Below are positions 1,237 to 19,226 of a stretch of 19,226 bases of DNA, piece after piece. The notes beneath the pieces were generated by a model. The model worked only from the letters and a program-made list of their open reading frames with translations. It searched no databases and was not told the DNA's origin. A program made the translations under genes and the position numbers. Position 1 is the stretch's first letter. Every line of letters begins with the position of its first letter. This DNA is from a virus (Duplodnaviria; Heunggongvirae; Uroviricota; Caudoviricetes), in IMG/VR virus record IMGVR_UViG_2778261168_000002, positions 1 through 19,226 of that record. The stretch is one strand, 5' to 3'.

Positions 1237-1237
1237 A

Positions 1238-1453: not shown

Positions 1454-1552
1454 CGCATCACCTCTGGCAGGCGCCAATGTTAGACTGAAATTGACGCCTG
1501 ATGTTGATTATTAATAATCAGCTATGAAGTTTTAATTTGAATACAATGCAAT

Positions 1553-1741: not shown

Positions 1742-1940
1742 GAACGCCTCCATTAATATTTTCAGTGGTTCGTTTATTCCATCTTTCGAGCGCTTCTTTT
1801 TCACTTCCACCATAGCCAGTTCGGGATTCGCATCCGTTGCATTTTGCCCGGTAATATCCTGAAATGTCTTTCACCGTTACTGATGGACAACCACAAAACG
1901 GACATGGTTTAACATCGTCATATCTCAAAGTTTTTGTCAT
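1734..1940 (-). CDS. ralR: Lar-family restriction alleviation protein (68 aa), zinc-ribbon CPFCG...CNGC
   Basis: Sequence MTKTLRYDDVKPCPFCGC...RAKCNGCESRTGYGG matches recalled RalR/Lar; start chosen at MTKTL rather than the upstream ORF-track start. Confidence 0.8.
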   Translation of the reverse strand: MTKTLRYDDVKPCPFCGCPSVTVKDISGYYRAKCNGCESRTGYGGSEKEALERWNKRTTENINGGVHV

Positions 1941-1984
1941 AAAAACTATCTCACGTTGGCGGTGCATTACACCGCCAGGCTGGA

Positions 1985-2818
1985 TTATTCTTCTGGATTA
2001 TCGATTACACTGTATTCCCCGGCTATAACCGATATGTCGTCTGGATTAATTGTTTCCACCTCTTTTCCATCCATCGATACTGCACGCTGGATTTCAATAG
2101 ATACCGGCAGATACTTGAACAGTTTTCGTATCACTGTCTTTTTGGCCATGTCTTCAAAGTGTTCATCCCAGATGGACGACGCCCCTTTTGACGCTGCGTT
2201 TTTTGCCGCCTTGCTGTGTGTGTCGCGAACTTTTTCTACTTGTTTGCGGGTCATGACTTCAAACTGCACTCCTCCGTCTTTCAGTTTTGCAACAGCATAG
2301 ACATGGGTTATAGGGGCATCTTCGTTTTCACCGGGACGATGAACCAGTTTTTCATCAAGGCCAAGTTCATAGCTGAATTCATCACATTCACGGACAACAC
2401 GAGCTGACAGACTGATGATTTGACCTGATCGACGGGCAAGGTCGATCATGCCGCGATAACCGATGATCAGCTGTACGTTCTTCTTACCGTTTTTTGCTTT
2501 TCCGTTGCCGAACGGTAGCAGATATGCATGACCGAGGGCGCTACCTGGCTCAAGTCCGAGCTGTGAACACTGTACGATGGCACCGATAAAACTCGTCGAG
2601 TCACAGTTTCTTAGTTCCGGTACTTTACGGATTTCTGTTGTAGCAATGCGGATCATGCGTTCCGCTGTCATGTGACGTGGCAGAGCTGCTGCCAGTTGCG
2701 CTTTCATTGCCGGGCTGTTAATCACGCACAGCACATCCTTATCGTTAACTGCTGCTGGTGCACGGTTTCCCTGAGTTTTTTGCAGATCGGCTTTTGCGAT
2801 AGGTGGTTGCTTAGTCAT
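1985..2818 (-). CDS. recT: RecT single-strand annealing recombinase (277 aa from [13 protein letters not shown])
   Basis: Strong match to recalled RecT; AAGGAG sits 7 nt upstream of the ATG at 2818; 8-nt overlap with the recE stop. Confidence 0.9.
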
Positions 2819-5462: not shown

Positions 5463-5532
5463 TGTTTTTTAACCTCAACTCAGATTAAAATTACTGCGAG
5501 TGATGAATAAATGTCCTAGGTTCTTCACTCAG

Positions 5533-5561
5533 GCCTGCACTCTGTGCAGGCTTTCTTTTTT
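5533..5561 (+). terminator. GC hairpin (GCCTGCAC-tctg-TGCAGGC) followed by a T-run on the plus strand, overlapping the racC stop
   Basis: Inverted repeat 5533-5551 and T-run 5552-5561 read directly; oriented against the leftward operon. Confidence 0.3.
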
Positions 5562-5836
5562 CAGATTTCACCGTTTAATTTCATTGCGATCATAGTTGCC
5601 AGAAATTCGGCTTTTTTTTCTGCAGGTAGATTCTTTCCGATATGCACCAGGCACATTTTTTTGACACCTTCATCAAGTGTTTTTACGTTGCCTGATGGAC
5701 CATCGATATCAACCACAGTGAATGGGGCTTCTTTATTTTCTGTTTTAATTACGTAGCCAATGCGCTTTCCTTCCAGATTCACCTCGTGAACAATATCATC
5801 GGTAGTTACAACAGTGGCTTCATAATTGGTAATCAT
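5561..5836 (-). CDS. racC: RacC (91 aa from MITNYEATVV)
   Basis: Matches recalled RacC; AAGGAG 6 nt upstream of ATG at 5836; ORF track extends 16 codons further upstream. Confidence 0.8.
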   Translation of the reverse strand: MITNYEATVVTTDDIVHEVNLEGKRIGYVIKTENKEAPFTVVDIDGPSGNVKTLDEGVKKMCLVHIGKNLPAEKKAEFLATMIAMKLNGEI

Positions 5837-5910
5837 GTTTTTCTCCTTAATTAAGGTTGAGCGAATACCTGCCATTTCTGGCATAAATTCAGTTTCGAAT
5901 AGTCAATTAA

Positions 5911-6081
5911 TTAAAGTTCGTGTGCCATCTGGTCTTTTTCGGCACAATTTTCACTACAATATTTTTTCATTTCCGTCGTTGGGATAACTCCACGCATGAA
6001 ATGAAGTGGTCTTTTAATGCTTTTGCTTTCTTCAATTCCTTTATTGCAAAGGTGGTAAGCACATTTTATTTTCTTAGTCAT
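5911..6081 (-). CDS. ydaE: YdaE-like small Cys-rich protein (56 aa, [12 protein letters not shown]...YCSENCAEKDQMAHEL)
   Basis: Hand-translated from the minus strand; below the ORF-track length cutoff; ATG overlaps the kilR stop (TGATG). Confidence 0.65.
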   Translation of the reverse strand: MTKKIKCAYHLCNKGIEESKSIKRPLHFMRGVIPTTEMKKYCSENCAEKDQMAHEL

Positions 6082-6302
6082 CACCATGACTCCGCCTTTA
6101 CAGGTAAACCATCACGACCGAGGAAGACTTTAATCATGCAGTCAGAAATGCATGTTTTTGTAGTCAGGTTACGAATATAAAGTTTTCGCTTTTTAATATT
6201 GTTTGCCGAGGCGATATATGTCCGGCCTTCATGAAGAACATAATCACCAGGAGTCACACACTGACGTGGTATTTCATCAGTTCCGAAGTGATGTGCAATC
6301 AT
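6081..6302 (-). CDS. kilR: KilR cell-division inhibitor (73 aa from [14 protein letters not shown])
   Basis: Matches recalled KilR; GGAG upstream of the ATG at 6302; ORF track starts 4 codons earlier. Confidence 0.8.
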
Positions 6303-6742
6303 AATTATCTCCATTTTTACAAATGAACTTTGTTGATGCGGTGCCTGGTGCCTCCAGGTGACTGCAACCAGTTAACAATTACAGTCGGCTTTCCCACCCA
6401 AACCAATAAGGACTAACATGACTTTTAACTGTGCCGCGTGCGCTTAGCCGCATTCACCGCATCACAAAATTCACTTTAAAAAGGGCGGACATCAGTCGAA
6501 CTTCAAGAAAAAACTGATGCCGCCAAGACTACACACAGCAGTGTTGTTATTCACAACCGGAGGCGCACTCCCACCATTTAAATTTAACAGACAAGACCGA
6601 CTCTTTATGGATATCGGAAATGCGCCTTCGTGTTGTGCCCGGTTTTATTTCACCACCTCCGGGCTTCGGTGGTCTCTGCTATACCCCTACAGCGAGAGCT
6701 TGTGTTAACATTTCAATACCCTTACAGTTGAGAGTTATTGAA

Positions 6743-7252
6743 ATGTTAGAAAGTCTTTTAACATTGGCAAAATTCTTTGCCGAAAAATCAGTTAGTCGGT
6801 TTATGATTACTATAGTTATATTTTTTCTGATATTAATGTTGGTACCAGAAAACTTGTCAGAGTATCTGGAAAAGAAAAGCGCCATTCCATATTCCATGCA
6901 GCTATTTTGCTTCAGCATAGCCTTTGTCTCGACTTTAATCCTTGATAGAGTAGTAATCCTTTTCTTGAGAATGTTCTACCTGATTCGGGGTTTTGTAAAA
7001 AAGCGTAAAATGCTAAAAAATCTGAATTCGCTAAATGCAGAACAAATTCGTATTATTGAACTTTTCCTTCAATATAATTGCCAACTTACGCTTTGTCCTG
7101 ATAACCCAAATGTCGCCTTACTTGTTAAAATGAGAATAATTAGTTTTGTGAGAAAATGTTCTTTGGGAAATGATTCCCAATTTCAGCTCAATCCTGAATA
7201 TGAGGATCTCATATTTGAAACATGGAATCCTTGCACTAAGCGCTTCGAATAA
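6743..7252 (+). CDS. sieB: Superinfection exclusion protein B (169 aa from MLESLLTLAKFF), membrane protein
   Basis: Matches recalled SieB; hydrophobic segments; AT-rich; the ORF-track N-terminal extension from 6620 is probably not translated. Confidence 0.75.
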   Translation: MLESLLTLAKFFAEKSVSRFMITIVIFFLILMLVPENLSEYLEKKSAIPYSMQLFCFSIAFVSTLILDRVVILFLRMFYLIRGFVKKRKMLKNLNSLNAEQIRIIELFLQYNCQLTLCPDNPNVALLVKMRIISFVRKCSLGNDSQFQLNPEYEDLIFETWNPCTKRFE

Positions 7253-7253
7253 G

Positions 7254-7409
7254 TCACTCCGTTAATGTTTTGACCAACCAGCGACGCGCGCCACCTTCGG
7301 TTTTAAACGTTTTGCTTTTGGTATATGTCATGGCGGTGAATGTTCCATCCTGGTTGGGGAACACGCCGCACACCAGGGATTCGTTATTGCCGAGGTCGAT
7401 TTTTTGCAT
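7254..7409 (-). CDS. ydaF: YdaF-like small protein (51 aa, MQKIDLGNNESLVCGVFPNQDGTF...)
   Basis: Hand-translated from the minus strand; not in the ORF track at this frame and length; matches recalled YdaF. Confidence 0.6.
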   Translation of the reverse strand: MQKIDLGNNESLVCGVFPNQDGTFTAMTYTKSKTFKTEGGARRWLVKTLTE

Positions 7410-7419
7410 TTTTCGCACC

Positions 7420-7554
7420 TCACATTTTGTTGTTGCGGATAGAGGCTTCTGCCTGCCAGAGATCCCAGTCGTTGCTGCGTAGAGTCTGTACAGCCTGGCT
7501 GTAAGTGATATCGCAACAATCCATCAAATACTGAACTACTTCGTAATGCACCAT
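7420..7554 (-). CDS. ydaG: YdaG-like small protein (44 aa, MVHYEVVQYLMDCCDITYSQAVQTLRSNDWDLWQAEASIRNNKM)
   Basis: Hand-translated; GGGGAG Shine-Dalgarno upstream of ATG at 7554; matches recalled YdaG. Confidence 0.6.
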   Translation of the reverse strand: MVHYEVVQYLMDCCDITYSQAVQTLRSNDWDLWQAEASIRNNKM

Positions 7555-7620
7555 CTTATCTCTCCCCTTAACGCCGGGTGGCGGAACTAAAACCTACAGC
7601 GCCGTGCTGCTTCTGTAATA

Positions 7621-7649
7621 ATATTAGTTATGTTCATATTAATGATCAA
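7621..7649 (-). promoter_or_regulatory. Candidate leftward (PL-like) sigma70 promoter: TTGATC-N17-TAATAT on the minus strand
   Basis: Hexamers read on the reverse complement of 7621-7649; positioned upstream of ydaG; overlaps a TTATG/TTCATA motif resembling the half-sites of the palindrome at 8264-8282. Confidence 0.35.
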
Positions 7650-7742
7650 TAGAAATATGCATTTTGTTGATAAAAATGTACTATCCTAATGAAATTTTTA
7701 GTGTTTTTTTTGATAAAAAGTAAGGCGGGGCGGGCGGAGGGG

Positions 7743-7770
7743 ACAAAAAAAACCGCCAAAAATGGCGGTT
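7743..7770 (-). terminator. Rho-independent terminator downstream of racR (hairpin AACCGCC-aaaaa-TGGCGGTT with a U-run on the minus strand)
   Basis: Inverted repeat 7751-7770 with an A-run 7745-7752 on the plus strand, i.e. a T-run after the hairpin on the minus strand. Confidence 0.6.
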
Positions 7771-7790
7771 TAGTTACGAGGTGGTGGGAG

Positions 7791-8255
7791 CTATTTCTTC
7801 ATGCGTTTTTGAGCTGCCAGCATATTTTCAAATGCTTCTTTGTAGAGTTCATTCTGACCTTTAAGTCTTTCGATTAGTTTTGCTTTTTCTGATTCGGGAA
7901 GGATATCAAAAAGATCTAGTAAATCAGCTTGTTGCTTGTTAACCATCCGCCAACCTTCGCCTTCGAAACTTTCGTCATAAGTTCCTGAGGAACGGACGTA
8001 ATTCATCAGATCAGCTAAATCAGGCCTCAACTCTTCAGGCTTAACTCTTAGTAATACAGCGAATTTTAATGCCGCATCAGTATTAAGTGGAGCCTTTCCG
8101 TTGAGATAATGGCTAACCGCAGATTGCGCCTCAAAACCCATTAGCTCGGCAGCAAGCTCCTGAGTCAGTTTGAGCTCTCTTTTTTTTGCATCCCAGATTG
8201 CGCGCAGACGTTGCGTAGCTTCCGGCGATGCGATTTCTTCGCGTTTTCTTCTCAT
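7791..8255 (-). CDS. racR: Prophage repressor RacR (154 aa), HTH DNA-binding
   Basis: ORF track 7791..8255 minus; matches recalled RacR; divergent from ydaS as expected for an immunity region. Confidence 0.85.
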   Translation of the reverse strand: MRRKREEIASPEATQRLRAIWDAKKRELKLTQELAAELMGFEAQSAVSHYLNGKAPLNTDAALKFAVLLRVKPEELRPDLADLMNYVRSSGTYDESFEGEGWRMVNKQQADLLDLFDILPESEKAKLIERLKGQNELYKEAFENMLAAQKRMKK

Positions 8256-8263
8256 ACCACCAT

Positions 8264-8282
8264 CTTATGAATACAGTTCATA
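8264..8282. promoter_or_regulatory. Candidate operator: inverted repeat TTATGAA-tacag-TTCATAA between racR and ydaS
   Basis: 7-bp arms with a 5-bp spacer read directly from the sequence. Confidence 0.4.
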
Positions 8283-8302
8283 ATCTCAAACTGATATAGG
8301 TA

Positions 8303-8331
8303 TTGATCATTTAAATTAGTATGGTTAATAT
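8303..8331 (+). promoter_or_regulatory. Candidate rightward (PR-like) sigma70 promoter TTGATC-N17-TAATAT driving ydaS-ydaT
   Basis: Same hexamer pair as the leftward candidate at 7621-7649; its -10 lies downstream of the ORF-track ATG at 8321, which argues for the 8360 start of ydaS. Confidence 0.4.
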
Positions 8332-8359
8332 TTTGGTGAGCATTACTAAGGTGACCCTT

Positions 8360-8635
8360 ATGACATTAGATGAATATTTGAAAAAAAATCGTGTACGACA
8401 GTCTTGTTTGGCCGCGCTGGCTGGTTGTTCGCAATCAATGATTAGCCTCGCTGCTACTGGACGTAGTCAGTTAAGCCCTGAAAAGGTATTGCGTATCGCA
8501 GAGGCTACGAATTTCGAGGTTACACCTCATGAACTCCGGCCTGATATCTACCCGAATCCGACCGATGGTTTACCTGTTGGATGTAAGGCTAACACACAAA
8601 ATACACAGGAGTTGATTCATGAAAATCAGGCATGA
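8360..8635 (+). CDS. ydaS: Cro-like HTH protein YdaS (91 aa from MTLDEYLKKNRV)
   Basis: AAGGTGA 6 nt upstream of ATG at 8360; HTH-like segment QSCLAALAGCSQSMIS; position immediately right of racR. Confidence 0.6.
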   Translation: MTLDEYLKKNRVRQSCLAALAGCSQSMISLAATGRSQLSPEKVLRIAEATNFEVTPHELRPDIYPNPTDGLPVGCKANTQNTQELIHENQA

Positions 8636-9041
8636 GCACATCGAATCAGTGCTGTTAGCCCTGGCAGCCGAAAAAGGGCAGGCGTGGGTCGCTAACGCAA
8701 TTACTGAAGAATATCTTCGCCAGGGGGGCGGCGAATTGCCCCTGGTACCAGGCAAGGACTGGAATAATCAGCAGAACATCTATCACCGTTGGTTAAAAGG
8801 TGAAACGGAAGTGCAAAGGGAAAAAATTCAGAAACTGATCCCAGCAATTCTGGCAATTCTTCCGCGCGAGCTGCGTCACCGACTCTGCATCTTCGATACC
8901 CTAGAACGCCGTGCATTACTGGCGGCGCAGGAAGCGTTGAGTACGGCAATTGATGCGCATGATGATGCAGTCCAGGCCGTTTACCGGAAAGCGCATTTCA
9001 GCGGCGGCGAGTCGTCCGGCGATTCTGTCGTAGTGCATTGA
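8619..9041 (+). CDS. ydaT: YdaT (140 aa), toxic partner of YdaS repressed by RacR
   Basis: ORF track 8619..9041; length and position match YdaT; ACAGGAG Shine-Dalgarno; 17-nt overlap with ydaS. Confidence 0.7.
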   Translation: MKIRHEHIESVLLALAAEKGQAWVANAITEEYLRQGGGELPLVPGKDWNNQQNIYHRWLKGETEVQREKIQKLIPAILAILPRELRHRLCIFDTLERRALLAAQEALSTAIDAHDDAVQAVYRKAHFSGGESSGDSVVVH

Positions 9042-9119
9042 TTGAAATTAATCGTGCCGGACTGTTTTGTTCGGTATCAGTTAAATGTAACGCTCACAGC
9101 GTTACAAGGTGAAAACAAT

Positions 9120-9914
9120 ATGGCTTCAAACTGGATAAAGCTCGAGGTTATTACGCCGGATAAGCCGGAAATATTCAGGCTTGCTGAGATTCTGAATATT
9201 GATCCAGATGCCGCATTAGGGAAAGTCATTCGCTTCTGGGCATGGGCGGATCAACAAATGATAGACGGTAACGCAGAGTGTAACGCACGCGGCGTTACAA
9301 AAAGCGCAATTGATCGCATCACTTTTATGGCTGGTTTTGCTGATGCGTTAATTCAGGTTGGATGGCTGGTCGAAACTAATGGTGTGTTGTCGCTTCCTAA
9401 CTTTGAGCGCCATAACGGGAAAAGCTCTAAAAAACGGGCGGTTACAAACGAGAGAGTTACAAAAATACGCGAACTGAAACGAAAAGGTAACGCTGCCAGC
9501 GTTACACAAACGGATCAAAAAGCGTTACCAGAGGAAGAGGAAGAGGAAGAGGAAGATATAAATACTGATCTCCCTCTAAATCTCCCTCACCAAAAACGAG
9601 CGACTAAAAAATTCGACCCGTCGTCAGTTGCTCTGCCTGAGTGGTTGCCGGAAACACTCTGGCATGAGTGGGTTCAATTCAGGCAGGCATTGCGAAAACC
9701 GATTCGAACGGAGCAGGGCGCTAACGGGGCGATACGGGAGCTGGAAAAATTCCGCCAGCAGGGTTTTACCCCTGAGCAGGTGATTAGACACAGCATTGCC
9801 CATGAATACCAGGGCTTGTTCGCGCCGAAAGGCGTTCGGCCTGAGACGTTGCTTCGACAGGTTAACACCGTCTCGTTTCCGGACAGTGCGATCCCACCAG
9901 GCTTCAGGGGGTAA
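9120..9914 (+). CDS. ydaU: Replication initiation protein YdaU-like (264 aa from MASNWIKLEV); contains an EEEEEEEED acidic run
   Basis: The ORF-track start at 9042 is a TTG codon; the first ATG with a Shine-Dalgarno-like GGTGA is at 9120; position upstream of the DnaC-like gene. Confidence 0.65.
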   Translation: MASNWIKLEVITPDKPEIFRLAEILNIDPDAALGKVIRFWAWADQQMIDGNAECNARGVTKSAIDRITFMAGFADALIQVGWLVETNGVLSLPNFERHNGKSSKKRAVTNERVTKIRELKRKGNAASVTQTDQKALPEEEEEEEEDINTDLPLNLPHQKRATKKFDPSSVALPEWLPETLWHEWVQFRQALRKPIRTEQGANGAIRELEKFRQQGFTPEQVIRHSIAHEYQGLFAPKGVRPETLLRQVNTVSFPDSAIPPGFRG

Positions 9915-9920
9915 CGAAGC

Positions 9921-10667
9921 ATGAAAAATATTGCGACAGGCGGCGTTCTGGAACGCATCCGCCGACTGACCCCGCCACATGTAACCGCGCCATTCAGGAC
10001 GGTGGCGGAGTGGCGCGAGTGGCAACTTGCAGAAGGCCAGAAACGTTGTGAGGAGATCAACCGTCAGAATCGTCAGTTGCGGGTGGAAAAAATCCTGAAT
10101 CGCTCCGGCATCCAGCCTTTGCACCGCAAATGCTCGTTTGCGAATTACCAGGTGCAGAACGACGGCCAGCGATACGCGTTGAGTCAGGCGAAATCTATCG
10201 CTGACGAACTGGTTACCGGATGCACAAATTTCGCGTTTAGCGGAATGCCTGGTACCGGAAAAAACCATCTGGTGGCGGCTATCGGGAATCGCCTGCTGAA
10301 AGATGGCCAGACAGTGATTGTGGTTACCGTGGCGGATGTCATGAGTGCTCTACACGCCAGCTATGACGACGGGCAATCAGGCGAAAAATTTTTGCGGGAA
10401 CTGTGCGAAGTGGATCTGCTGGTTCTTGATGAAATTGGCATTCAGCGCGAGACAAAAAACGAGCAGGTGGTGCTGCACCAGATTGTTGATCGCCGGACAG
10501 CGTCGATGCGCAGCGTGGGGATGCTGACAAACCTGAACTATGAGGCCATGAAAACATTGCTTGGCGAGCGGATTATGGATCGCATGACCATGAACGGCGG
10601 GCGCTGGGTGAATTTTAACTGGGAGAGCTGGCGCCCGAATGTTGGTCAGCCAGGAATTGAAAAGTAA
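9921..10667 (+). CDS. ydaV: DnaC-like helicase loader / IstB-like ATPase (248 aa)
   Basis: Walker [11 protein letters not shown] and Walker B LLVLDEIG; matches recalled YdaV. Confidence 0.85.
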
Positions 10668-10689
10668 TTTTTACCGGGAGGAAATTTTA

Positions 10690-11439
10690 ATGGAGACCGT
10701 TTTTGACGCACTGAAAGCAATGGGAAAAGCCACGTCGGTAGAACTGGCAGCGCGACTTGATATCAGTCGTGAAGAAGTGCTGAACGAGCTGTGGGAACTG
10801 AAAAAGGCTGGCTTCGTTGATAAAAGCGTATACACCTGGCGTGTGGTTGATAACAACGTTCAGCAGGAACATCCAGTGCCGGAAGAACAGCCGGAAGAAA
10901 TCGCCACGGCAACAGTGACGAAAATATCGGAGTGCGATTTAACCGCGACGATTGAACAACGTGGTCCACTAACTGCGGATGAACTGGCTACGTTGTTCGG
11001 TACCACATCACGCAAAGTGGCTTCAACGCTGGCAATGGCAATCAGCAAGGGGCGTCTGATTCGCGTAAATCAGAACGGTAAATTTCGTTACTGCATGCCG
11101 GGCGATAATTTACCAGCAGAACCGAAAGCTGCATTGGTAACGAAAAATGATGGTAAAGCCTTTCCTCAGCCAGCCGGTGTTGCGTTACCAGTACAGGAAG
11201 CGGCAACACAGGAAGATATTAAAACAGAAACTGTGGCGGACATTGTGCAGTCGCTGCCATCGTTTACTGAAACGCAAGCGAATGACCTGGTTTTACCATC
11301 GCTGCATATGGCAAACCGCGAACTGCGTCGGGCGAAAAATCATGTCCAGAAGTGGGAGCGTGTCTGCGCCGCGCTGCGGGAGCTGAACAAGCACCGGGAT
11401 ATTGTCCATAAAGTTATTGCAGCAGGTATGGAGAAATAA
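10690..11439 (+). CDS. Conserved prophage protein, YdaW-like by position (249 aa from [11 protein letters not shown])
   Basis: GGGAGG 9 nt upstream of ATG at 10690; N-terminal winged-helix-like segment; follows ydaV as ydaW does in Rac. Confidence 0.55.
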
Positions 11440-11624
11440 ATACTCCTGATTATATGAGTCATCCTGCTGCAGTTGTGACCAATATGAGCGGTTGTGCAGA
11501 GTTCTTCAGATAGAGGTAATGAAAACTGCGGTGATTTGTATTCGCTGCAGTTAATATAAGCTCGTCGTATTTTTTCATGAAATGTGATCTTAGTCATATT
11601 TATATCACGTCTATTTATCCGATT

Positions 11625-11640
11625 CTGATGAAATCATCAG
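11625..11640. promoter_or_regulatory. Perfect palindrome CTGATGA-aa-TCATCAG about 50 bp upstream of the 689-aa gene; candidate operator
   Basis: Read directly from the sequence; sits in the AT-rich leader. Confidence 0.3.
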
Positions 11641-11692
11641 GTGTTAAGATACTATTTGTGCTGTCACCTCAATGGTTTAAAAAGGAATCTGG

Positions 11693-13762
11693 ATGAAAGG
11701 TAATATTCTCGGGGATATCCGAGCTGAACATGACGAAAAGATGTTGGAAGCTTCATTTTGGCAAACAACTGATTATAAAGCTCTTCTCGAATCCTACGAT
11801 CGCTGCATCATTGTTGGCCGCAGAGGAACAGGAAAAAGTGCTCTGGTGCATATGCTTTCCAAACATTGGCATGCTAAGCCAAAAACCTATGTGATGACTA
11901 TTAGTCCGGTTGAAGAACAAATTATTGGATTAAGGGACGTTATTTCTTTATTTGGTGAAAATTACTTACATATAAAAGCCGGTAGCAAGTTAGCATGGCG
12001 ATATGCTATTTATATGGAGCTGCTTTCTGAGATCGCAAGTCATTACAAGATGAAAAACGATCTTGACTACAAAAGTGTAGAGTCGCATTTATTATCTTGG
12101 GGACCGAAGAGACAAAATATAAGTAGCAAAATAAGAAAAAAATTGAACACTATTCTCGATGATAACAAAAATATAAAACCAGCTACAAGAATAGCCGAAC
12201 TATCCGATAAATTTGAACTTGACTTATTGGAAGAGGTGATAGAAGAAGCAATTTCGAAGTCAAATAATCAATTTGTTATTTTTGCTGATAGACTTGATGA
12301 AGGCTATACACCGGATAATCTTGGTGTTGCAATAGTTGATGGTTTCATTCAGGCTGTGATTGATATAAAACAAAATATGAATGAAAAGGTTATTGCCTTT
12401 GCATTTGTTAGAGATAATATTCATCGAGCTATATCAAAAATGGACCCTGATTTCACTCGAAATATTGAAGGGCAAGTACTGAGATTACATTGGGATGAAT
12501 ATAACTTGTTTAATCTTGTATGCAATAGAATGAGGGTCGCTTTTAACTCAACCATTGAGAATAACACGAGGGTGTGGAATGCTTACACCGCAAATGAATT
12601 ACAGTCTAATACCGGTTTTAAAGAAACATTGAAACTGACTCTATATAGGCCAAGAGATATTTTGGTTTTGTTAAATAATGCATTCTTGCGAGCAAACACA
12701 CATGATCGTAATCGTATTGTCATTGATGACATTCAAGCAACAGCGAATACTATTTCACAAAATAGACTCAATGATTTGTTAAAAGAATATGAGAATGTAT
12801 TTCCTGCATTAGATATATTTACATCGCAATTTGCTAATAGCAAACCTTACTACAGTGTTTCTGAAGCGTCATCTAAGATACAATATGCCCTTGATCTCAA
12901 TGGCGTTATTGACAAGATGAAAATGCAGGATTTACTTCTTTTTGAAGGGCCAATCCAGGTGATTCAACGACTTTACAGTGTTGGATTTATTGGGTTGTAT
13001 AACCAGCAGTCATCTTCATATGTATTTTGCCATGACGGTAAGGAACCTGAAAAAGAATTTACACCAGATTCAAAATTGCTATTGCATCCATGCTACTGGC
13101 TAGCATTAAGTGTTCATGAATCAGAGATGACTCCCGATGCTGCTGATGATATTCATGATGAATATGATATTGAGGTCAGCTCTGTTTCCGAAGAGCAGAG
13201 GAAACAACGAATCGGTTCGTTGCTCCAAGAACTACATAATATACCTGAAGGACCTGAAGGTGCTGTCGATTTTGAAGCATGGGCGCTCAAAACTATAAAG
13301 TTACTATTTGCTACGAATTTAACAAACATTGAGTTGCATCCCAATAAAAATGGGTTGCAGCAAAGAGATATTATAGCGACAAATATAGCTGACACTCCAG
13401 TTTGGAAGAGAATTCTGACAGATTATCAGACACGGCAAGTTGTTTTTGAAGTGAAAAACTATAAAACATTAGGTGCTGCAGAATATAGACAGGTAAATTC
13501 CTATTTGTTTAAAGACTATGGGCGGATAGCTTTTATCATAAATAGAGATCATACAGAGAATTTAGAAAAACATAAAGAACTTACGTGGGTAAAAGAAATT
13601 TATGATAATCATAATAAATTAGTTGTGAAGTTACCCTCTAAGTTCCTTGAAAGACATCTGTCAAAAATGAGAAGCCCGCAAAAACATGACGAAGTTAATA
13701 AACAATTAGGTAAACTGCTCGATCAGTACATAAGGGTCTATTTAAATAATAAATGTAAGTAA
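11693..13762 (+). CDS. 689-aa P-loop NTPase with C-terminal PD-(D/E)xK-like nuclease motif; candidate single-gene anti-phage defence or abortive-infection protein
   Basis: Walker A GRRGTGKS (residues 42-49); Walker B-like FVIFADRLDE; C-terminal QRDIIATN...VVFEVKNYK...EYRQ fits a D...ExK nuclease core; AAGGA Shine-Dalgarno; visibly AT-rich relative to flanking genes; own terminator. Confidence 0.85.
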   Translation: MKGNILGDIRAEHDEKMLEASFWQTTDYKALLESYDRCIIVGRRGTGKSALVHMLSKHWHAKPKTYVMTISPVEEQIIGLRDVISLFGENYLHIKAGSKLAWRYAIYMELLSEIASHYKMKNDLDYKSVESHLLSWGPKRQNISSKIRKKLNTILDDNKNIKPATRIAELSDKFELDLLEEVIEEAISKSNNQFVIFADRLDEGYTPDNLGVAIVDGFIQAVIDIKQNMNEKVIAFAFVRDNIHRAISKMDPDFTRNIEGQVLRLHWDEYNLFNLVCNRMRVAFNSTIENNTRVWNAYTANELQSNTGFKETLKLTLYRPRDILVLLNNAFLRANTHDRNRIVIDDIQATANTISQNRLNDLLKEYENVFPALDIFTSQFANSKPYYSVSEASSKIQYALDLNGVIDKMKMQDLLLFEGPIQVIQRLYSVGFIGLYNQQSSSYVFCHDGKEPEKEFTPDSKLLLHPCYWLALSVHESEMTPDAADDIHDEYDIEVSSVSEEQRKQRIGSLLQELHNIPEGPEGAVDFEAWALKTIKLLFATNLTNIELHPNKNGLQQRDIIATNIADTPVWKRILTDYQTRQVVFEVKNYKTLGAAEYRQVNSYLFKDYGRIAFIINRDHTENLEKHKELTWVKEIYDNHNKLVVKLPSKFLERHLSKMRSPQKHDEVNKQLGKLLDQYIRVYLNNKCK

Positions 13763-13771
13763 TTCAATCTT

Positions 13772-13803
13772 TACCGAAAGATCATGTATCTTTCGGTATT
13801 TTT
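13772..13803 (+). terminator. Rho-independent terminator of the 689-aa gene (TACCGAAAGAT-catgt-ATCTTTCGGTA plus T-run)
   Basis: 11-bp stem and TTTTT read directly, 10 nt after the stop codon. Confidence 0.65.
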
Positions 13804-13888
13804 AAGCGAGAGTAATCAAAATCGTAATGAGAGCTATATAATAATGTGTATAGATTGATTTACGAACGCTTCAACATTTACCGTTATT

Positions 13889-13987
13889 ATGACGGTAAAT
13901 GTTGCAAGGAAAGACCTCTGCGAGGTACGAATCCGAACCGGTCAGACGGAGGTCGCTGTCTTCAGAGCTTACGAATCTGAGGAGTAA
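13889..13987 (+). pseudogene. hok-family toxin remnant retaining the conserved C-terminus (RKDLCEVRIRTGQTEVAVFRAYESEE) but lacking the N-terminal transmembrane segment
   Basis: Hand translation; C-terminal match to the Hok/Gef family (HokD/RelF-like); upstream in-frame sequence is not hydrophobic and runs into a stop at 13856. Confidence 0.55.
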
Positions 13988-14055
13988 GAGACCTGGCGGG
14001 GGAGAAATCCCTCGCCACCTCTCATGTGTCAGGCATCCTCAAAGCACCCGCACTT

Positions 14056-14081
14056 AACCCGCTTCGGCGGGTTTTGTTTTT
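14056..14081 (+). terminator. Rho-independent terminator (CCCGC-ttcg-GCGGG plus TTTTGTTTTT) at the 3' end of the hok-like transcript
   Basis: Hairpin and T-run read directly. Confidence 0.6.
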
Positions 14082-14160
14082 CATGAATAAGGGATTAATA
14101 ATTTTAACTGAAGTTATATTACCTTGTGGCCCGATAAGTTAATTAATTATCAATGCGCCT

Positions 14161-14250
14161 GTATTGTTTGTATTGTTTGCATTGTTTGTATTGTTTGTAT
14201 TATTTGTATTGTTTGTATTGTTTTTATTATTTGCGTTGTTTGTGGTTTTA
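14161..14250. repeat. Degenerate tandem array of about 10 copies of the 9-bp unit GTATTGTTT
   Basis: Units at 14161, 14170, 14179, 14188, 14197, 14206, 14215 and following, with single-base variants (GCATTGTTT, GTATTATTT, GCGTTGTTT). Confidence 0.85.
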
Positions 14251-14381
14251 TCTTTTTGGGTTTATTTTTTGCGTTGCTTAGAAATAAAGATTAATTAGAA
14301 TCCTCCTGTTTTGAGTAGCGCGCAGGGACAAGAGGGATGGACCCTGAGAAGGGGGTGCTATTTATCCGGAAGGATTCTTTG

Positions 14382-14555
14382 ATGAATATCGAAAAAATTC
14401 GTGAAACTTTTAGTGAAAATGGCCTCTATGCTGTGCGCGTTGAGAATGGAGAAGTTATCTACACAACGTTAATTCCTGATGATCATGTGATTTTATCTAT
14501 CGAGGCATTCATTGAATACCTGGAAAGGCTTGGTTTCAAGGTGGCTAGGGAATGA
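14382..14555 (+). CDS. Small hypothetical phage protein (57 aa from MNIEKIRETF)
   Basis: GGAAGGA about 7 nt upstream of ATG at 14382; the ORF-track start at 14337 has no usable spacing to a Shine-Dalgarno. Confidence 0.4.
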   Translation: MNIEKIRETFSENGLYAVRVENGEVIYTTLIPDDHVILSIEAFIEYLERLGFKVARE

Positions 14556-14614
14556 GTTATAATTCGTAAGCCAGCTTGAACAACTGGCAACCTACAGCGC
14601 CATTGGAGATAGCA

Positions 14615-15214
14615 ATGGCGCATATACAACTGATCAAACAAACTTCTTCCGGTTTACTGCTCCCGGCGACGCCGGAGAGTTGCGATTTTCTGCATCAAAT
14701 CAAAATAGGTGAGTGGATACACGCAGACTTTAAGCGTGTGCGTAACTACGCATTCCACAAGCGTTTTTTCAAACTCCTGCAACTGGGATTCGATTACTGG
14801 ACTCCGGTCGGTGGGGCGATCACACCTCGCGAACGAGAACTGCTGTCTGGTTTCGTGGATTACTTGTGCGAATCAGTTGGTCGGGAACACACACCAGCCC
14901 TGAGTGATGCCGCAGAGCAATATCTAAATACCGTTGCGACACGCAGAACCCGGGATACGGCATTGCTTAAGTCATTTGAGGCTTTCCGCGAGTGGGTAAC
15001 CATTCAGGCCGGATTTTACACCGAGCATATTTATCCGGACGGTAGCCGTGGGCGCAGGGCGAAATCCATCGCGTTTGCGAATATGGACGAAACCGAGTTT
15101 CAGCAGGTTTATAAATCTGTACTGAATGTGCTGTGGAACTGGATTCTGTTCCGTAAATTCTCCTCTCAGGAGGAAGTTGAAAATGTGGCCGCACAACTAC
15201 TGGAGTTTGCGTAA
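14615..15214 (+). CDS. Conserved lambdoid nin-region protein (199 aa from MAHIQLIKQ), tentatively DUF1367-like
   Basis: The ORF-track start at 14576 is TTG; the first ATG with a GGAGA Shine-Dalgarno is at 14615; position upstream of the ybcO-like and Q-like genes. Confidence 0.55.
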   Translation: MAHIQLIKQTSSGLLLPATPESCDFLHQIKIGEWIHADFKRVRNYAFHKRFFKLLQLGFDYWTPVGGAITPRERELLSGFVDYLCESVGREHTPALSDAAEQYLNTVATRRTRDTALLKSFEAFREWVTIQAGFYTEHIYPDGSRGRRAKSIAFANMDETEFQQVYKSVLNVLWNWILFRKFSSQEEVENVAAQLLEFA

Positions 15215-15504
15215 TGGTGAATTTACGTAAAGCGGCTAAAGGCCAGATGTGCCAGATCAGAATCCCTGGCTACTGCAATCACAATCCCGAAACCTCTGTG
15301 CTGGCGCATTACAGGCTGGCGGGGACGTGCGGAACAGCGACAAAACCACACGATATGCAGGCGGCGATAGCCTGTAGCTCATGCCACGATCTAATCGACG
15401 GGCGGGTAAAAACCAGCGATTACACCAAAGAAGAATTGCGCCTGATGCATGCTGAAGGGGTTTTTCGCACACAAGAAATCTGGAGAAAGAAAGGTCATTT
15501 ATGA
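15214..15504 (+). CDS. YbcO-like Cys-rich putative nuclease (DUF1364-type, 96 aa)
   Basis: Pattern NLRKAAKG.CQIRIPG.CN.NPETSVLAH..L.G.CG...KP.D...IACSSCHD resembles recalled DLP12 YbcO; start overlaps the upstream stop (TAATG). Confidence 0.65.
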   Translation: MVNLRKAAKGQMCQIRIPGYCNHNPETSVLAHYRLAGTCGTATKPHDMQAAIACSSCHDLIDGRVKTSDYTKEELRLMHAEGVFRTQEIWRKKGHL

Positions 15505-16043
15505 TTTACCCAACGAATACAGGAAAAAGCGGAGAACACCTTCGCCTCACCACGCTGGAAAGTGTCTGGATTCAGGGAAAACTACGTATGTGGGGGCGCT
15601 GGTCGTATATTGGCGGTGGCAGGTCAGGGAATATGTTCAATCAGTTGTTGGCATCCAAAAAACTGACGAAAACAGCCATTAATGAAGCCCTGCGCAGAAT
15701 GAAAAAAGCGGGAATAGAGAAAGCTGAGCTGGAAGCGTTTTTGCGAGAGATGATCAACGGCAAGCAAAAGAGCTGGCTGGCGCATTGTACTGATGCAGAG
15801 GCGTTATGTATTGATCGAGTCATAAGTGAGGTGCTGGCAGAGCATCCAGGATTGATTTGCATTCTCCGGCAACGCTATGAAGGGCGGGGGATGACTAAGC
15901 GCAAAATGGCTGAATTGCTAAATGATGCACACCCAGAGTGGTGTTTTAGCACATGCGAAAAACGGATTGCTAATTGGTTAGCTGTTGCTGAGTATGCCCT
16001 ATATATTCCCATGCGTGAATCATTTGCTGAGAAAATGGCTTGA
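15501..16043 (+). CDS. Putative late-gene antiterminator (Q-like, 180 aa)
   Basis: Positional: last gene before a strong terminator and the lysis cassette; ATGA overlap with the preceding gene; family assignment is from context, not from a recognised motif. Confidence 0.5.
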   Translation: MIYPTNTGKSGEHLRLTTLESVWIQGKLRMWGRWSYIGGGRSGNMFNQLLASKKLTKTAINEALRRMKKAGIEKAELEAFLREMINGKQKSWLAHCTDAEALCIDRVISEVLAEHPGLICILRQRYEGRGMTKRKMAELLNDAHPEWCFSTCEKRIANWLAVAEYALYIPMRESFAEKMA

Positions 16044-16123
16044 TTTCTTACGTATAAACTGCTTCAATTTTGCTATGCTTCGCAAAGCTGTATCGCGAGG
16101 CGGATTGCAGACATGGACATCGT

Positions 16124-16150
16124 AAAAAAACCGCTTAATGCGGTTTTTTT
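16124..16150 (+). terminator. tR'-like rho-independent terminator (AAACCGC-ttaat-GCGGTTT plus T7) about 85 bp after the Q-like gene
   Basis: Hairpin and T-run read directly; the 16044-16123 leader would hold a PR'/qut-like site. Confidence 0.6.
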
Positions 16151-17028
16151 ACGTCAGGAAAGCAGGGGAGAATGCTGCTAGTTGGGCAACTGGTCTTTCT
16201 GCTCCAAATTATAACAGAGACCAGTTATAGTTTCGGTGCTGTGTTTTTTTTACAATATTGTGATAACACATTGCTGGCGGGAGTTTTGATATTTCTTGGC
16301 AGGGGCTGATGATGCGTTATCCTGATGTCGTCAACTCATATAAAATGAGATGAGAGATCATTGCAGGGTGGTTTGTAATTCGCTGTTTAGCGGGACAATA
16401 TGTTGTCTGATACAAGACACCCGACGCCTCAGATTACTATAATAAAGACGAAGCATCCTTTGTATTGACCAACCGCCTGTTTAGGCGGTTCTTTTTGGGC
16501 TGGTTTATTGTATGCCAAATGATTATTAAAAAGGTTGTGTTAATAACAAAATCCGAAATAATATGCCTGCATATTTTTATCTTGCTTATATTCTGCATAT
16601 TGTGCATAGCAGGCTCATCCCTGCAATCAAAACTGTATGATGAGTATTTTTTGTTTTCCTTTTTTCCAGTCATCTGATGATGACCTGCTTCTTTTTAATC
16701 CGGATCGACATCAGTTTTTTAAGATAATTCCTGCGAGTTATATGCATAAATGCCACAAACTCCGCATTTTATGTGGTTGGGAGTTGCCGGGCGCGCAGTG
16801 AGTTTGCTAAGAAAACTCCTGCATGGTGAATCCCCCTGTGCGGTGGGGTGATACCATTAACCTTTTCTGTCGCCGACAGGTATCACGAACATTTTGTTCA
16901 CCGGGAGGCACCCGGCACCATGCACTTCAATAGATTCTCTCCACATTATGGATATTCTTTCAGAATATCCCACGCAGACTTTGTGTAAATGTTAACAAAT
17001 GTGCGTTTTATTTGATCTGATTCGCTGT

Positions 17029-17058
17029 TTGAGCGTCCAAAACAACGGTATATATAAT
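17029..17058 (+). promoter_or_regulatory. Candidate sigma70 promoter TTGAGC-N18-TATAAT upstream of the first TolA-like lipoprotein gene
   Basis: Consensus -10 TATAAT at 17053-17058; -35-like TTGAGC at 17029-17034; GAGGA Shine-Dalgarno before ATG at 17088. Confidence 0.45.
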
Positions 17059-17087
17059 CCTTTACTATATGACATATGTGAGGAAAA

Positions 17088-17516
17088 ATGGGTTTTCGTA
17101 GCGCATCAATTCTTACGTTGATTATTAGTGGGATTATTATCGGGTGCACTGATGCTGTATCGACAAATTATCATGACCGTACATCATATTACTCCGATAA
17201 AGCAATAGAGACACAGTATGTGAGTTCATCTGAACGTACTTCTGATGTTAGTGAGGATATCCGTCTGTATGCCCATCAAATCAAGAGCGCCATCGAAAAA
17301 CAGTTCGGGGATGCGAGTAAGTATTCAGGAAAAGAGTGTACACTGAGAATGCATATGGCCCCGAATGGCCTTCTACTGGAGGTTAAAAGAGAAAGTGGAG
17401 ACCTCGATTTATGTCGTGAAGCGATGAATGCGATAAAGAATGCTGATATACCTGCCCCCCCTTCGCCGGAAGTATATAAAGTATTTCAAAATGGGGTGCT
17501 GGATTTTAAACCCTGA
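17088..17516 (+). CDS. Lipoprotein with TolA C-terminal (domain III)-like domain (142 aa)
   Basis: Lipobox IIGC after a signal peptide; C-terminus QIKSAIEKQFGDASKYSGKECTLRMHMAPNGLLLEV...LCREAMNAIKNADIPAPPSPEVYKVFQNGVLDFKP closely parallels the recalled C-terminus of E. coli TolA. Confidence 0.8.
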   Translation: MGFRSASILTLIISGIIIGCTDAVSTNYHDRTSYYSDKAIETQYVSSSERTSDVSEDIRLYAHQIKSAIEKQFGDASKYSGKECTLRMHMAPNGLLLEVKRESGDLDLCREAMNAIKNADIPAPPSPEVYKVFQNGVLDFKP

Positions 17517-17666
17517 TATTTATTGTTTTGTAATAAACGGTTTCGGCTTAGGTTTGTTCTGACACAGCTACGGCACTGAGCTAAATTTAGCGGATAGTCA
17601 GCTCTGAGCCAGTGGCGGACGTAACAACTACTATTGCTGAGATTTTAATGGATTGAGGAGCAAGAA

Positions 17667-18062
17667 GTGGGATTAAAGAAAATCGTTATGTTGACTTTTT
17701 GGGTCGGTTTTGTTGCGGGATGCACACCTTTACACCCTTCAGATTGCCACAAAACTACTGCTACAGGTAGTTGCAGTTCAGGACGCTGGGATGATCAGGA
17801 TGAATGGGGGGCGCAAGCGCGGGGAATCAGAGCTGCAATTAATGCCAAACTTGATGAGCCGCATAACTGGAAAGGGAAAAAATGCAGGTTGCATATGGAA
17901 TTCTCTCAGGATGGCACGGCGTTAAAAATATCTACCAGTAACGGTGATAAAGCCTATTGCGAAGCGATAAAGTCCGCAGCTCATAAAGCCAAATTTCCGG
18001 CCTTCAACAATCCGGAAGTCTACAGAGATTTTCAGAAATCTGGCTTTGACATGCGAGGTTAG
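17667..18062 (+). CDS. Second lipoprotein with divergent TolA-III-like C-terminal domain (131 aa; GTG start)
   Basis: Lipobox VAGC; GAGGAG 6 nt upstream of GTG at 17667; C-terminus KCRLHMEFSQDGTALKI...YCEAIKSAAHKAKFPAFNNPEVYRDFQKSGFDMRG is paralogous to the upstream protein. Confidence 0.7.
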   Translation: MGLKKIVMLTFWVGFVAGCTPLHPSDCHKTTATGSCSSGRWDDQDEWGAQARGIRAAINAKLDEPHNWKGKKCRLHMEFSQDGTALKISTSNGDKAYCEAIKSAAHKAKFPAFNNPEVYRDFQKSGFDMRG

Positions 18063-18187
18063 CTCTTCAATTACTATATCTCATTCATAGCAAACTGACA
18101 GATTTGATGATGTTCTATATACGAAACCTGTGATGTCAAGTCTGAGCTAATACAAATAAACATAATATCAGAGAAATACATTTTATT

Positions 18188-18212
18188 AGCTCGCTACGGC
18201 GAGCTTTTTATA
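18188..18212 (+). terminator. Hairpin AGCTCGC-tacg-GCGAGCT plus T-run downstream of the lipoprotein pair
   Basis: Read directly from the sequence. Confidence 0.45.
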
Positions 18213-18313
18213 TTGCATCGTCTCCAGCATATATATCAATTAAGGCTCTGATTGATGTGTCTGAAAGCCTACACATAATAACTATGCCATCCGTTCCGTG
18301 CGGAGGTGAGGCT

Positions 18314-18529
18314 ATGAAATCCATGGACAAAATTTCAACAGGCATTGCCTACGGCACCTCCGCAGGCAGTGCTGGCTACTGGTTTTTACAGTTGCTCGAT
18401 AGAGTAACTCCGTCACAGTGGGCTGCAATCGGTGTGCTGGGTAGTCTGGTATTTGGCCTGCTGACGTACCTGACAAACCTTTATTTCAAGATTAAAGAAG
18501 ATAAGCGCAAGGCTGCGAGAGGTGAATAA
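18314..18529 (+). CDS. Phage-21-type class II holin (pinholin S21-like, 71 aa from [10 protein letters not shown]; dual-start motif)
   Basis: Matches recalled S21; GGAGGTGAG Shine-Dalgarno; ORF track extends upstream from a GTG. Confidence 0.8.
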
Positions 18530-19026
18530 TGCCTCCATCATTACGAAAAGTCGTTGCTGCTGCTATTGGTGGCGGAGCAATTGCTATAGCATCAGTGTTA
18601 ATCACTGGCCCAAGTGGTAACGATGGTCTGGAAGGTGTCAGCTACATACCATACAAAGATATTGTTGGTGTATGGACTGTATGTCACGGGCATACAGGAA
18701 AAGACATCATGCTCGGTAAAACGTATACCAAAGCAGAATGCAAAACACTCTTGAATAAAGACCTTGCCACTGTCGCCAGACAAATTAACCCGTACATCAA
18801 AGTCGATATACCGGAAACAACGCGCGGCGCTCTTTACTCATTCGTTTACAACGTGGGTGCTGGCAATTTCAGAACATCGACGCTTCTTCGCAAAATAAAC
18901 CAGGGCGATATCAAAGGCGCATGTGATCAGCTACGTCGCTGGACATATGCTGGCGGTAAGCAATGGAAAGGTCTCATGACTCGTCGTGAGATTGAGCGTG
19001 AAATCTGTTTGTGGGGTCAGCAATGA
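18529..19026 (+). CDS. SAR endolysin (R21-like lysozyme, 165 aa) with N-terminal signal-anchor-release segment
   Basis: Gly/Ala-rich hydrophobic N-terminus [20 protein letters not shown] followed by a lysozyme-like domain; start overlaps the holin stop (TAATG). Confidence 0.85.
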
Positions 19027-19226
19027 ACAGAGTAACCGCGATTATCTCCGCTCTGGTTATCTGCATCATCGTCTGCCTGTCATGGGCTGTTAATCATTAC
19101 CGTGATAACGCCATTACCTACAAAGCCCAGCGCGACAAAAATGCCAGAGAACTGAAGCTGGCGAACGCGGCAATTACTGACATGCAGATGCGTCAGCGTG
19201 ATGTTGCTGCGCTCGATGCAAAATGA
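19023..19226 (+). CDS. Rz-like i-spanin, only 67 aa before an in-frame TGA at the window edge (possibly truncated)
   Basis: [67 protein letters not shown] matches the N-terminal part of lambda-type Rz (about 153 aa); ATGA overlap with the endolysin stop. Confidence 0.6.

Follow-up and report, generated by a model that had tools for sequence, protein, structure and literature searches.

What is a run of short head-to-tail repeats doing in the gap between the hok terminator and the next gene of a lambdoid prophage? The question is raised by a 19,226-nucleotide stretch of Caudoviricetes DNA (IMG/VR record IMGVR_UViG_2778261168_000002, positions 1 to 19,226), called the window throughout, in which an array of 9-bp units lies between a remnant of hok and a gene assigned here to the family of the prophage anti-repressor Rem. 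Our answer, which we hold to be probable, is that the array is a hypermutable variable-number tandem repeat (VNTR) which would have arisen by replication slippage and be neutral, carried by one T+G-rich allele of a hypervariable hok–rem spacer. That it lacks any sequence-specific function we judge to be about as probable. The parts of the spacer are as follows.

14084 to 14159, no strand: left spacer part, AT-rich, 76 bp, conserved in every array-bearing locus
14160 to 14240, no strand: the array, nine units of TGTATTGTT, five perfect and four variant
14241 to 14249, no strand: decayed tenth unit, TGTGGTTTT, invariant across alleles and marking where the variable part ends on the 3' side
14250 to 14273, no strand: T-rich tail with two T-runs, at about -58 to -35 of the predicted rem promoter

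Parsed in register, units 1, 2, 4, 6 and 7 of the array are perfect copies of TGTATTGTT. Unit 3 is TGCATTGTT, unit 5 is TGTATTATT, unit 8 is TTTATTATT and unit 9 is TGCGTTGTT, giving the order TGTATTGTT TGTATTGTT TGCATTGTT TGTATTGTT TGTATTATT TGTATTGTT TGTATTGTT TTTATTATT TGCGTTGTT, in which two units are the longest perfect run without interruption. The decayed tenth unit follows directly on the 3' side. An earlier note on this DNA had spoken of about ten head-to-tail copies with a few point variants, a fair count of nine units and a decayed tenth; the unit and position it gave, GTATTGTTT at 14161–14250, denote the same array, in a frame one base off the TGTATTGTT register that begins at 14160. 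Tandem Repeats Finder reports a repeat of period 9 at 14160–14243 (9.3 copies, 85% matches, score 126) together with a higher-order period of 27 bp (3.1 copies, 91%), the scores overall being 126–140. At a lag of nine the array matches itself at 62 of 72 positions. Over 1000 shuffles of the intergenic region that preserved dinucleotides, the corresponding figure averaged 29.1 and never exceeded 41; with shuffling confined to the T/G-rich core it averaged 37.1 and reached 49 at most. Chance, or a by-product of base composition, is therefore excluded as the source of the periodicity. Unit matches with at most one mismatch occur seven times in perfect register, at 14160–14222, and only five times elsewhere when both strands of the 19 kb are counted. 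The array is thus confirmed as a genuine tandem repeat, far beyond chance.

The spacer allele which carries it is rare. A sensitive BLAST search with 14075–14345 as query found it in 21 of 5,426 complete E. coli genomes, always in one copy and always on the chromosome, with matches that span 212 to 309 bp; two viral and two metagenome contigs are additional carriers. The 17 of these 21 E. coli loci that were retrieved for comparison all have the same gene order, namely hokD, terminator, spacer, rem-family gene, nin-type genes and Q. The array is present in 16 of them, and the remaining one, from DCE7 (L017), has a homologous T/G-rich stretch without a clean repeat. Perfect arrays of 5, 5, 6, 7, 8, 10, 10, 10, 11 and 13 units are found in ten of the 16, and interrupted arrays of 7, 8, 9 and 9 units in four that belong to the window's sub-lineage, whilst in L011 and L016 another unit, TGTGTTGTT, has expanded to 4 and 2 copies, respectively. 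With the viral contigs (7 and 13 units) and the metagenome contigs (7 and 4 units) included, the perfect arrays number 4, 5, 5, 6, 7, 7, 7, 8, 10, 10, 10, 11, 13 and 13 units. On either side of this variable part the allele is constant: the left spacer is identical or nearly so in the 16 array-bearing E. coli loci and in the two viral and two metagenome contigs, and every array allele closes with TGTGGTTTT[A/G]TC. The T-runs of the tail, at 14253–14257 and 14265–14270 in the window, vary in length among alleles, from about T5 to T9 and from T6 to T9. They form a second, independent slippage-prone element, in the position of an UP element. Beyond the spacer, the cargo upstream of hok differs widely among carriers and the downstream genes are of two types. 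Four Shiga toxin-producing E. coli (STEC) isolates, from beef, a patient, a pig and cattle, carry the array-type allele in Stx2e-converting prophages; in one of these loci (L003) the spacer array lies at 8086–8166 and stx2e at 13099–14334, 5 kb downstream.

The nature of the repeat is revealed by pairs of closely related loci. The loci L001 and L012, with 10 and 6 units, differ by one substitution across 5 kb of flanks. Between L013 (5 units) and L015 (13 units) there is one mismatch in the 2.5 kb on the left and 99.2% identity on the right, and L011 and L016, with 4 versus 2 copies of TGTGTTGTT, differ by four mismatches across 5 kb. Copy number thus runs from 4 to 13 units while the flanks differ by 0–4 substitutions in 5 kb. 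Since unit counts change on near-identical flanks, the array behaves as a hypermutable VNTR, as had been anticipated by the earlier suggestion of slippage-prone DNA whose copy number might differ among related prophages. Two hallmarks of a VNTR or minisatellite are present: short units in tandem beyond chance, and whole-unit copy-number polymorphism in close relatives. Interrupted arrays, by contrast with perfect ones, look stable, to judge from the identity of the interrupted array in the separate isolates STEC316 and STEC409 (L003 and L018) and from the identical match spans in four STEC genomes.

A simple course of events would account for these alleles. A 9-bp motif in the spacer between the hok terminator and the rem promoter of lambdoid prophages of the Rac, Qin or Stx2e type would first have been duplicated, after which misalignment of nascent and template strands would add or drop whole units. 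Uninterrupted arrays would then change length much faster than their flanks gain substitutions, until point mutations interrupt the array and slow the slippage. The window would hold such an interrupted and probably quiescent, or stabilised, allele. Folded as DNA, neither strand of the array forms a hairpin, which makes simple strand misalignment the likely route.

In these respects the array resembles the bacterial VNTRs or minisatellites used in multiple-locus VNTR analysis (MLVA) typing of E. coli O157 and other bacteria: short head-to-tail units, non-coding and often prophage-borne, whose copy number differs between near-identical genomes and whose perfect arrays are more variable than interrupted ones. 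It differs from them in that no described typing locus was found, in the literature searched, to correspond to it and in that it belongs to one rare allele. Neither an 18-mer of the repeat nor the 9-mer combined with ‘tandem repeat’ returned anything relevant in the literature searched, and this, together with its rarity among the complete genomes, agrees with the initial impression that it is no standard lambdoid element. The array is apparently an undescribed example of a familiar class. Repeats of the same unit do occur elsewhere. A 21-mer was found at 133 loci in collections of viral and species-representative genomes, among them loci in six Bartonella species (L083, L085, L087, L096, L108 and L124) and in many giant-virus (GVMAG) bins, with up to 8 perfect units. 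The flanks of these Bartonella and giant-virus repeats are unlike those of the E. coli locus, and only two of the 133 loci, the E. coli-type viral contigs L038 and L048, share its flanks. Because flanks are not shared, the other loci represent independent low-complexity repeats.

Is the array needed where it stands? The comparison with the Qin prophage of E. coli K-12 argues that it is not. Both loci run through hok, terminator, spacer, TAGAAT, leader and rem, with homologous terminators and leaders, but the Qin spacer is about 60 bp long and contains no repeat, whereas the window has a truncated hok and about 190 bp, array included, from terminator to -35 hexamer. More generally, the rem loci of viral contigs display 28 distinct spacer sequences of 61–173 bp with two-copy microduplications at most, as against about 190–230 bp from terminator to promoter in array-bearing loci. 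As rem loci have array-free spacers, the array is dispensable. The spacer upstream of the rem promoter is, to judge from these alignments, a hotspot of allelic replacement. All its alleles are T+G-rich and C-poor on the coding strand, T standing at about 0.4 and C at about 0.1–0.2 in the viral-contig spacers; this strand bias is common to the window (14084–14273) and to the viral-contig loci L156–L235.

The window itself is a mosaic, as becomes apparent upstream of the spacer, where the following features are found.

11693 to 13762: P-loop ATPase cargo gene, 689 aa, upstream of the hok remnant
13899 to 14057, plus strand: hok/gef remnant, consisting of the C-terminal part (...RKDLCEVRIRTGQTEVAVF...) and 3' untranslated region (UTR) only
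14056 to 14083, plus strand: hok intrinsic terminator (AACCCGCTTCGGCGGGTT and TTGTTTTTCA), from a terminator scan

In a three-way alignment the window follows its Rac relatives up to the hok remnant, then the array-type allele from about 14,000 to 14,345, and thereafter a rem body of the type seen in E11 and Rac-SA53. Neither rem nor the array is present in the 29 whole prophages most closely related to the window (97% identity over 10 kb), which carry a different, rem-less segment between the hok remnant and the DUF1367 gene. Breakpoints fall at about 13,990–14,000, within the 3' region of hok, and at about 14,345–14,450, within the leader or the body of rem. The window's allele would thus have entered a Rac prophage within a recombined module of hok 3' end, spacer and rem leader. 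That the window is mosaic around the array might seem to favour the proposal, made in the earlier note, of a recombination hotspot at the cargo junction, with a GT-rich repeat promoting module exchange; the crossovers, however, map to either side of the array and not within it, and the proposal finds no support. A coding role fares no better. All three plus-strand frames are open across the array, and one of them would encode a small hydrophobic peptide of the form MRL(YCL)n, but this frame has no Shine-Dalgarno sequence or other ribosome-binding site, ends in three different frames through T-run indels and meets a stop after 3 codons in L006, so that the peptide was rejected. Taken together, a hotspot or a coding repeat is an explanation already largely refuted, to which we would give hardly any credence. 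The statement of the note that a 9-bp period is not a frameshifting repeat is correct, a unit of 9 bp being unable to shift the reading frame. An origin as an insertion resembling a miniature inverted-repeat transposable element (MITE) was also considered and discarded: the ends looked weakly inverted by eye, with only short AT-rich inverted matches inside the left spacer; a repeat search found no bracketing inverted repeats, and the comparison with K-12 indicates a replaced segment instead of a clean insertion.

Dispensability leaves room for an optional function, for which the downstream neighbourhood has to be considered. It consists of the following features.

14274 to 14301, plus strand: predicted sigma-70 promoter of rem, TTGCTT (14274–14279), 16 nt, TAGAAT (14296–14301)
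14302 to 14381, plus strand: rem leader, with conserved block, G+C hairpin, T-rich stretch and Shine-Dalgarno sequence
14382 to 14555, plus strand: rem-family gene, 57 aa, ATG at 14382, Shine-Dalgarno GGAAGGA at 14368–14374

The start codon at 14382 leaves a gap of 298 bp after the terminator, in accord with the 300-bp non-coding setting first described, and the genes that follow are indeed of nin type (DUF1367/NinB-Orf, YbcO and a DUF1133/Q-like protein). The gene next to the spacer is, on the strength of its predicted product, a member of the Rem anti-repressor family. Its 57-aa protein falls into PHROG phrog_340 (E=1e-16), as does K-12 Rem (E=4e-21), its N-terminus is 59% identical to K-12 Rem (BLASTP, E=8e-11), and it is 70–79% identical to the Rac-SA53 protein annotated ‘Rem’ and its E11 homologue; the C-terminal half of the 57-aa form differs from that of K-12 Rem. 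In 2023 Rem of Qin was shown to act as an anti-repressor: it lifts the repression of dicBF by DicA and, when produced, strongly derepresses prophage genes; the condition that induces rem is unknown, according to the authors (PMC10448788). RefSeq lists the rem-family gene of array-bearing prophages (L001, 6520–6780; L005, L007–L016) as a ‘frameshifted’ pseudogene. The L001 copy, however, reads through without interruption as an open reading frame (ORF) of 86 aa, which aligns over its full length with K-12 Rem, and there at least the pseudogene call looks wrong.

Eight rem upstream regions were aligned (the window, four array-type loci, E11, K-12 Qin and Rac-SA53). In all of them, with spacers that are otherwise unrelated, TAGAAT is invariant, as is a block farther downstream, GCGCGCAGGGA-AAGA-GGATGG. 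Among the rem loci of viral contigs, 78 of 80 place TAGAAT 86–91 nt ahead of the start codon. By our reading of the alignment, a TTGNNN hexamer lies 16 nt upstream of it in each distinct spacer allele (TTGATT, TTGATC, TTGAAC, TTGAGG, TTGCCT and TTGCTT), the K-type allele having TTGAAG at 18 nt instead. A constant TAGAAT with a spaced TTGNNN, next to upstream DNA that is free to change, argues for a sigma-70 promoter under selection. We infer, with comparatively good support, that rem has its own promoter at 14274–14301, downstream of the array, with transcription starting near 14308. In the window this promoter has 8 of 12 consensus matches, below the threshold of the promoter scan, and its -35 hexamer, TTGCTT, is weak, with 3 of 6.

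The leader is conserved as well. A near-invariant block of 23 nt, GCGCGCAGGGACAAGAGGGATGG, occupies 14318–14340 and is followed by a short G+C hairpin (14341–14356) of variable loop and then by a T-rich stretch, a combination flagged as terminator-like in the scan. The stem of the hairpin is kept in 16 of 16 sequences while its loop varies. TAGAAT and the 23-nt block GCGCGCAGGGA-AAGAGGGATGG precede rem in the window (14296–14381), in L155 (1425–1497) and in 78 of the 80 loci L156–L235, and conservation of the block exceeds that of the rem coding sequence. The leader matches no Rfam family and has no clear covariation, which backs no more than a G+C stem of 3 bp and a weak stem of 5 bp and so does not make a convincing structured RNA. 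Possible roles for block and hairpin are those of an operator, an attenuator or a hairpin of boxB type. Control by LexA, as at the Gifsy anti-repressors, was also rejected: no LexA-type box (CTGT-N8-ACAG, at most one mismatch) was found from 8,668 to 16,382 or within 1.5 kb of the promoter. In this respect rem here is unlike the Gifsy anti-repressors, for which LexA-type control is described in literature cited by PMC10448788.

The adjacency of array and promoter, which the earlier note had surmised and which the prediction upholds, invites a regulatory reading. The number of units and the length of the T-run might act as a promoter-proximal rheostat, altering the AT-rich DNA upstream of the promoter so as to tune the output of the Rem-family gene, and with it spontaneous derepression and induction. 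Relative to a start at 14308 the array extends from about -148 to -68 (to -59 with the decayed unit) and the tail from about -58 to -35, its T-runs included, so that the array ends 25–34 bp upstream of the predicted -35 hexamer. With so weak a hexamer the promoter may depend on upstream DNA. The array is highly mutable on near-identical flanks, some carriers are Stx2e prophages, and Rem is potent as an anti-repressor, its inducing signal being unknown to the authors of the study (PMC10448788). Yet most rem promoters work without any array, copy numbers have no preferred length or phase, curvature is not predicted, and the interrupted allele of the window would be poorly switchable. Nor do the repeats have the structure of a phase-variation locus, as they lie neither in a coding frame nor between -35 and -10; promoter-spacing variation in the strict sense, another of the original proposals, does not apply to an array upstream of -35. 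On balance we think a rheostat unlikely.

Promoter-proximal repeats of this kind are familiar from other bacteria, such as the TAAA tract of nadA in Neisseria, the 7-bp repeats of hmw in Haemophilus and the T-tract of sabA in Helicobacter. The likeness lies in hypermutable repeats upstream of a core promoter and in a variable homopolymer that abuts the -35 hexamer. The array, however, resembles these loci in position only. At 9 bp its unit is longer, it resides in E. coli, in which such loci are uncommon, and the gene is a prophage anti-repressor homologue instead of one for a surface protein. It is attractive to consider that VNTR and T-run together make a mutational rheostat on a Rem-family promoter, a contingency locus for prophage induction in E. 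coli, although this fuller version of the idea is a shade less likely still. If it were true, sibling lysogens would differ heritably yet reversibly in their escape from repression, those with Stx2e-converting prophages included.

The physical properties of the array point to no function. Signals of coding, curvature and secondary structure are absent from it. In a dinucleotide wedge model its end-to-end to contour ratio is 0.965–0.975, with a net bend of 4–25 degrees, against a window-wide background mean of 0.971; a phased A-tract control behaved correctly, with 0.43 and 106 degrees. The lack of predicted curvature is as expected for a 9-bp period out of phase with the helix, and the suggestion of intrinsically curved DNA, for which a curvature prediction had been proposed as a check, finds no support in this model. 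The strongest predicted curvature of the window lies elsewhere, at 7631–7750, just upstream of a divergent 154-aa ORF (7791–8255, minus strand) in the position of the immunity region. Promoters are not enriched inside the array (1 found, 2.6 expected from shuffles), and the one candidate, TTTGCA-16-TATTAT at 14176–14203 with 9 of 12 matches, was rejected as it is made by two variant units and is absent from perfect arrays.

Might the units instead be bound by a protein? Many short head-to-tail units upstream of a promoter are the fitting form for an iterated site, at which H-NS or a specific small repressor would bind cooperatively and silence rem. Silencing an anti-repressor gene would be adaptive for a lysogen, and the region, at 23–29% GC (29–34% in the 100-bp windows that cover the left spacer), is typical of H-NS targets, but any AT-rich spacer would suit H-NS equally well. 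No gene for a candidate binding protein travels with the array in the retrieved carriers, its only constant partners being the hok 3' end and the rem leader. Neighbouring genes differ, unit number is unconstrained between 4 and 13, units decay by point mutation and a different unit, TGTGTTGTT, has expanded in one sub-lineage, none of which is as an iteron or operator array would have it. The 9-bp period, furthermore, does not suit a palindromic operator, nor does it agree with direct repeats for response regulators, which are phased at 10–11 bp. Ribbon-helix-helix proteins bind contiguous short direct repeats, as in the met-boxes of MetJ, the omega heptads of pSM19035 and the iterons of ParR, and the array is like these in having many such repeats beside a promoter. 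It is unlike them in that no cognate protein gene is nearby, unit number and sequence are unconstrained, and the setting is neither a plasmid nor a partition or regulatory cassette. A bound array is, in our view, very unlikely. A DnaA box, an IHF site and direct repeats of the PhoP, ArcA or OmpR type were inspected, by eye only, and dismissed as unfit in sequence or in 9-bp phasing.

The array could also act in RNA, if read-through of the hok terminator placed an unstructured U/G-rich stretch ahead of the rem message and uncoupled or destabilised it. RNase E cleaves at the consensus RN↓WUU, and each unit holds a matching GU↓AUU; such motifs, however, abound in any AU-rich RNA. In the RNA centroid structure the array remains unpaired. 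At the gathering score Rfam has nothing over it, and the minus-strand overlap with CrcZ is sub-threshold (15.8 bits versus 95). A sub-threshold match to isrK (27.4 bits; gathering score 50) covers the hok 3' UTR and terminator at 13996–14077. For the isrK-orf45-anrP region of Gifsy-1 there is a precedent, in that terminator read-through drives a downstream anti-repressor-like gene (PMC4825925). By analogy, since IsrK also precedes such a gene in Gifsy-1, it may be related to a hok 3' end. In the window, however, the hok promoter is lost, a further terminator-like site lies ahead of the hok remnant at 13772–13798, and rem apparently has its own promoter downstream, which would place the array outside the main rem transcript. 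An RNA-level element is accordingly a reading with very little to recommend it.

The wider context is that of a Rac-type prophage, as which the window is classified from its RNA genes and relatives. The RalA antitoxin RNA of the Rac RalR toxin is found at 1557–1735, above the Rfam gathering score, and the closest relatives in complete genomes end at trkG and have ydaT, ydaV and Rac-type lysis genes. A second RNA, STnc100, also matches above the gathering score, at 16791–16977. Aligned with the intact hokD of L003, the hok remnant has no promoter, mok/sok region or N-terminal membrane segment; the closest Rac relatives share this truncated junction, annotated there by RefSeq as ‘Hok/Gef family protein, incomplete, missing N-terminus’. 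The hok context given at the outset is borne out as regards the terminator, a hairpin with a T-run at 14056–14083 which also closes hokD in K-12 Qin and in most rem loci, but has to be amended as regards the gene, of which only a 5'-truncated remnant is left. Where hok lost its 5' half the gene for the 689-aa P-loop ATPase (11693–13762) is inserted. The protein is ‘Sll1717 family’ in RefSeq, with weak Pfam matches to ORC-CDC6-like and STAND proteins and weak PADLOC matches to the candidate defence families PDC-M36A and PDC-M28C, and is possibly anti-phage cargo. Another repeat in the window, a perfect AGAGGA hexamer in 4.5 copies at 9530–9556, lies inside a 290-aa ORF (9042–9914) that occupies the position of a replication-initiator-like gene and has no Pfam match.

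How secure, then, is the reading of the array as a neutral VNTR? Several considerations weigh against it. Neutrality is put forward as an argument from absence. The promoter immediately downstream of the array belongs to a gene from the family whose founder, when produced, strongly derepresses prophage genes (PMC10448788), and the T-run next to the -35 hexamer is length-variable too. The T+G strand bias of all spacer alleles hints at some constraint, and the allele persists in several distinct prophage backbones, Stx2e-converting ones included. If the array does anything, it would at most supply AT-rich DNA of variable length upstream of the rem promoter.

If the neutral reading holds, as seems most likely, the array carries little biological weight in itself and would represent a clean case of a minisatellite that evolves quickly within the spacer of a prophage. 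One family of lambdoid prophages, which includes carriers of stx2e, could be tracked with it at fine scale. Of wider use may be the by-products of the comparison: the Rem-family identity of the downstream gene, the conserved TAGAAT promoter with its 23-nt leader block, and the hypervariable spacer. The question of how Rem is induced (PMC10448788) could be approached through the conserved promoter and leader of rem instead of through the repeat itself. Should the repeat nevertheless tune rem, simple-sequence hypermutation would be linked to prophage induction, and possibly to the behaviour of Shiga-toxin phages.

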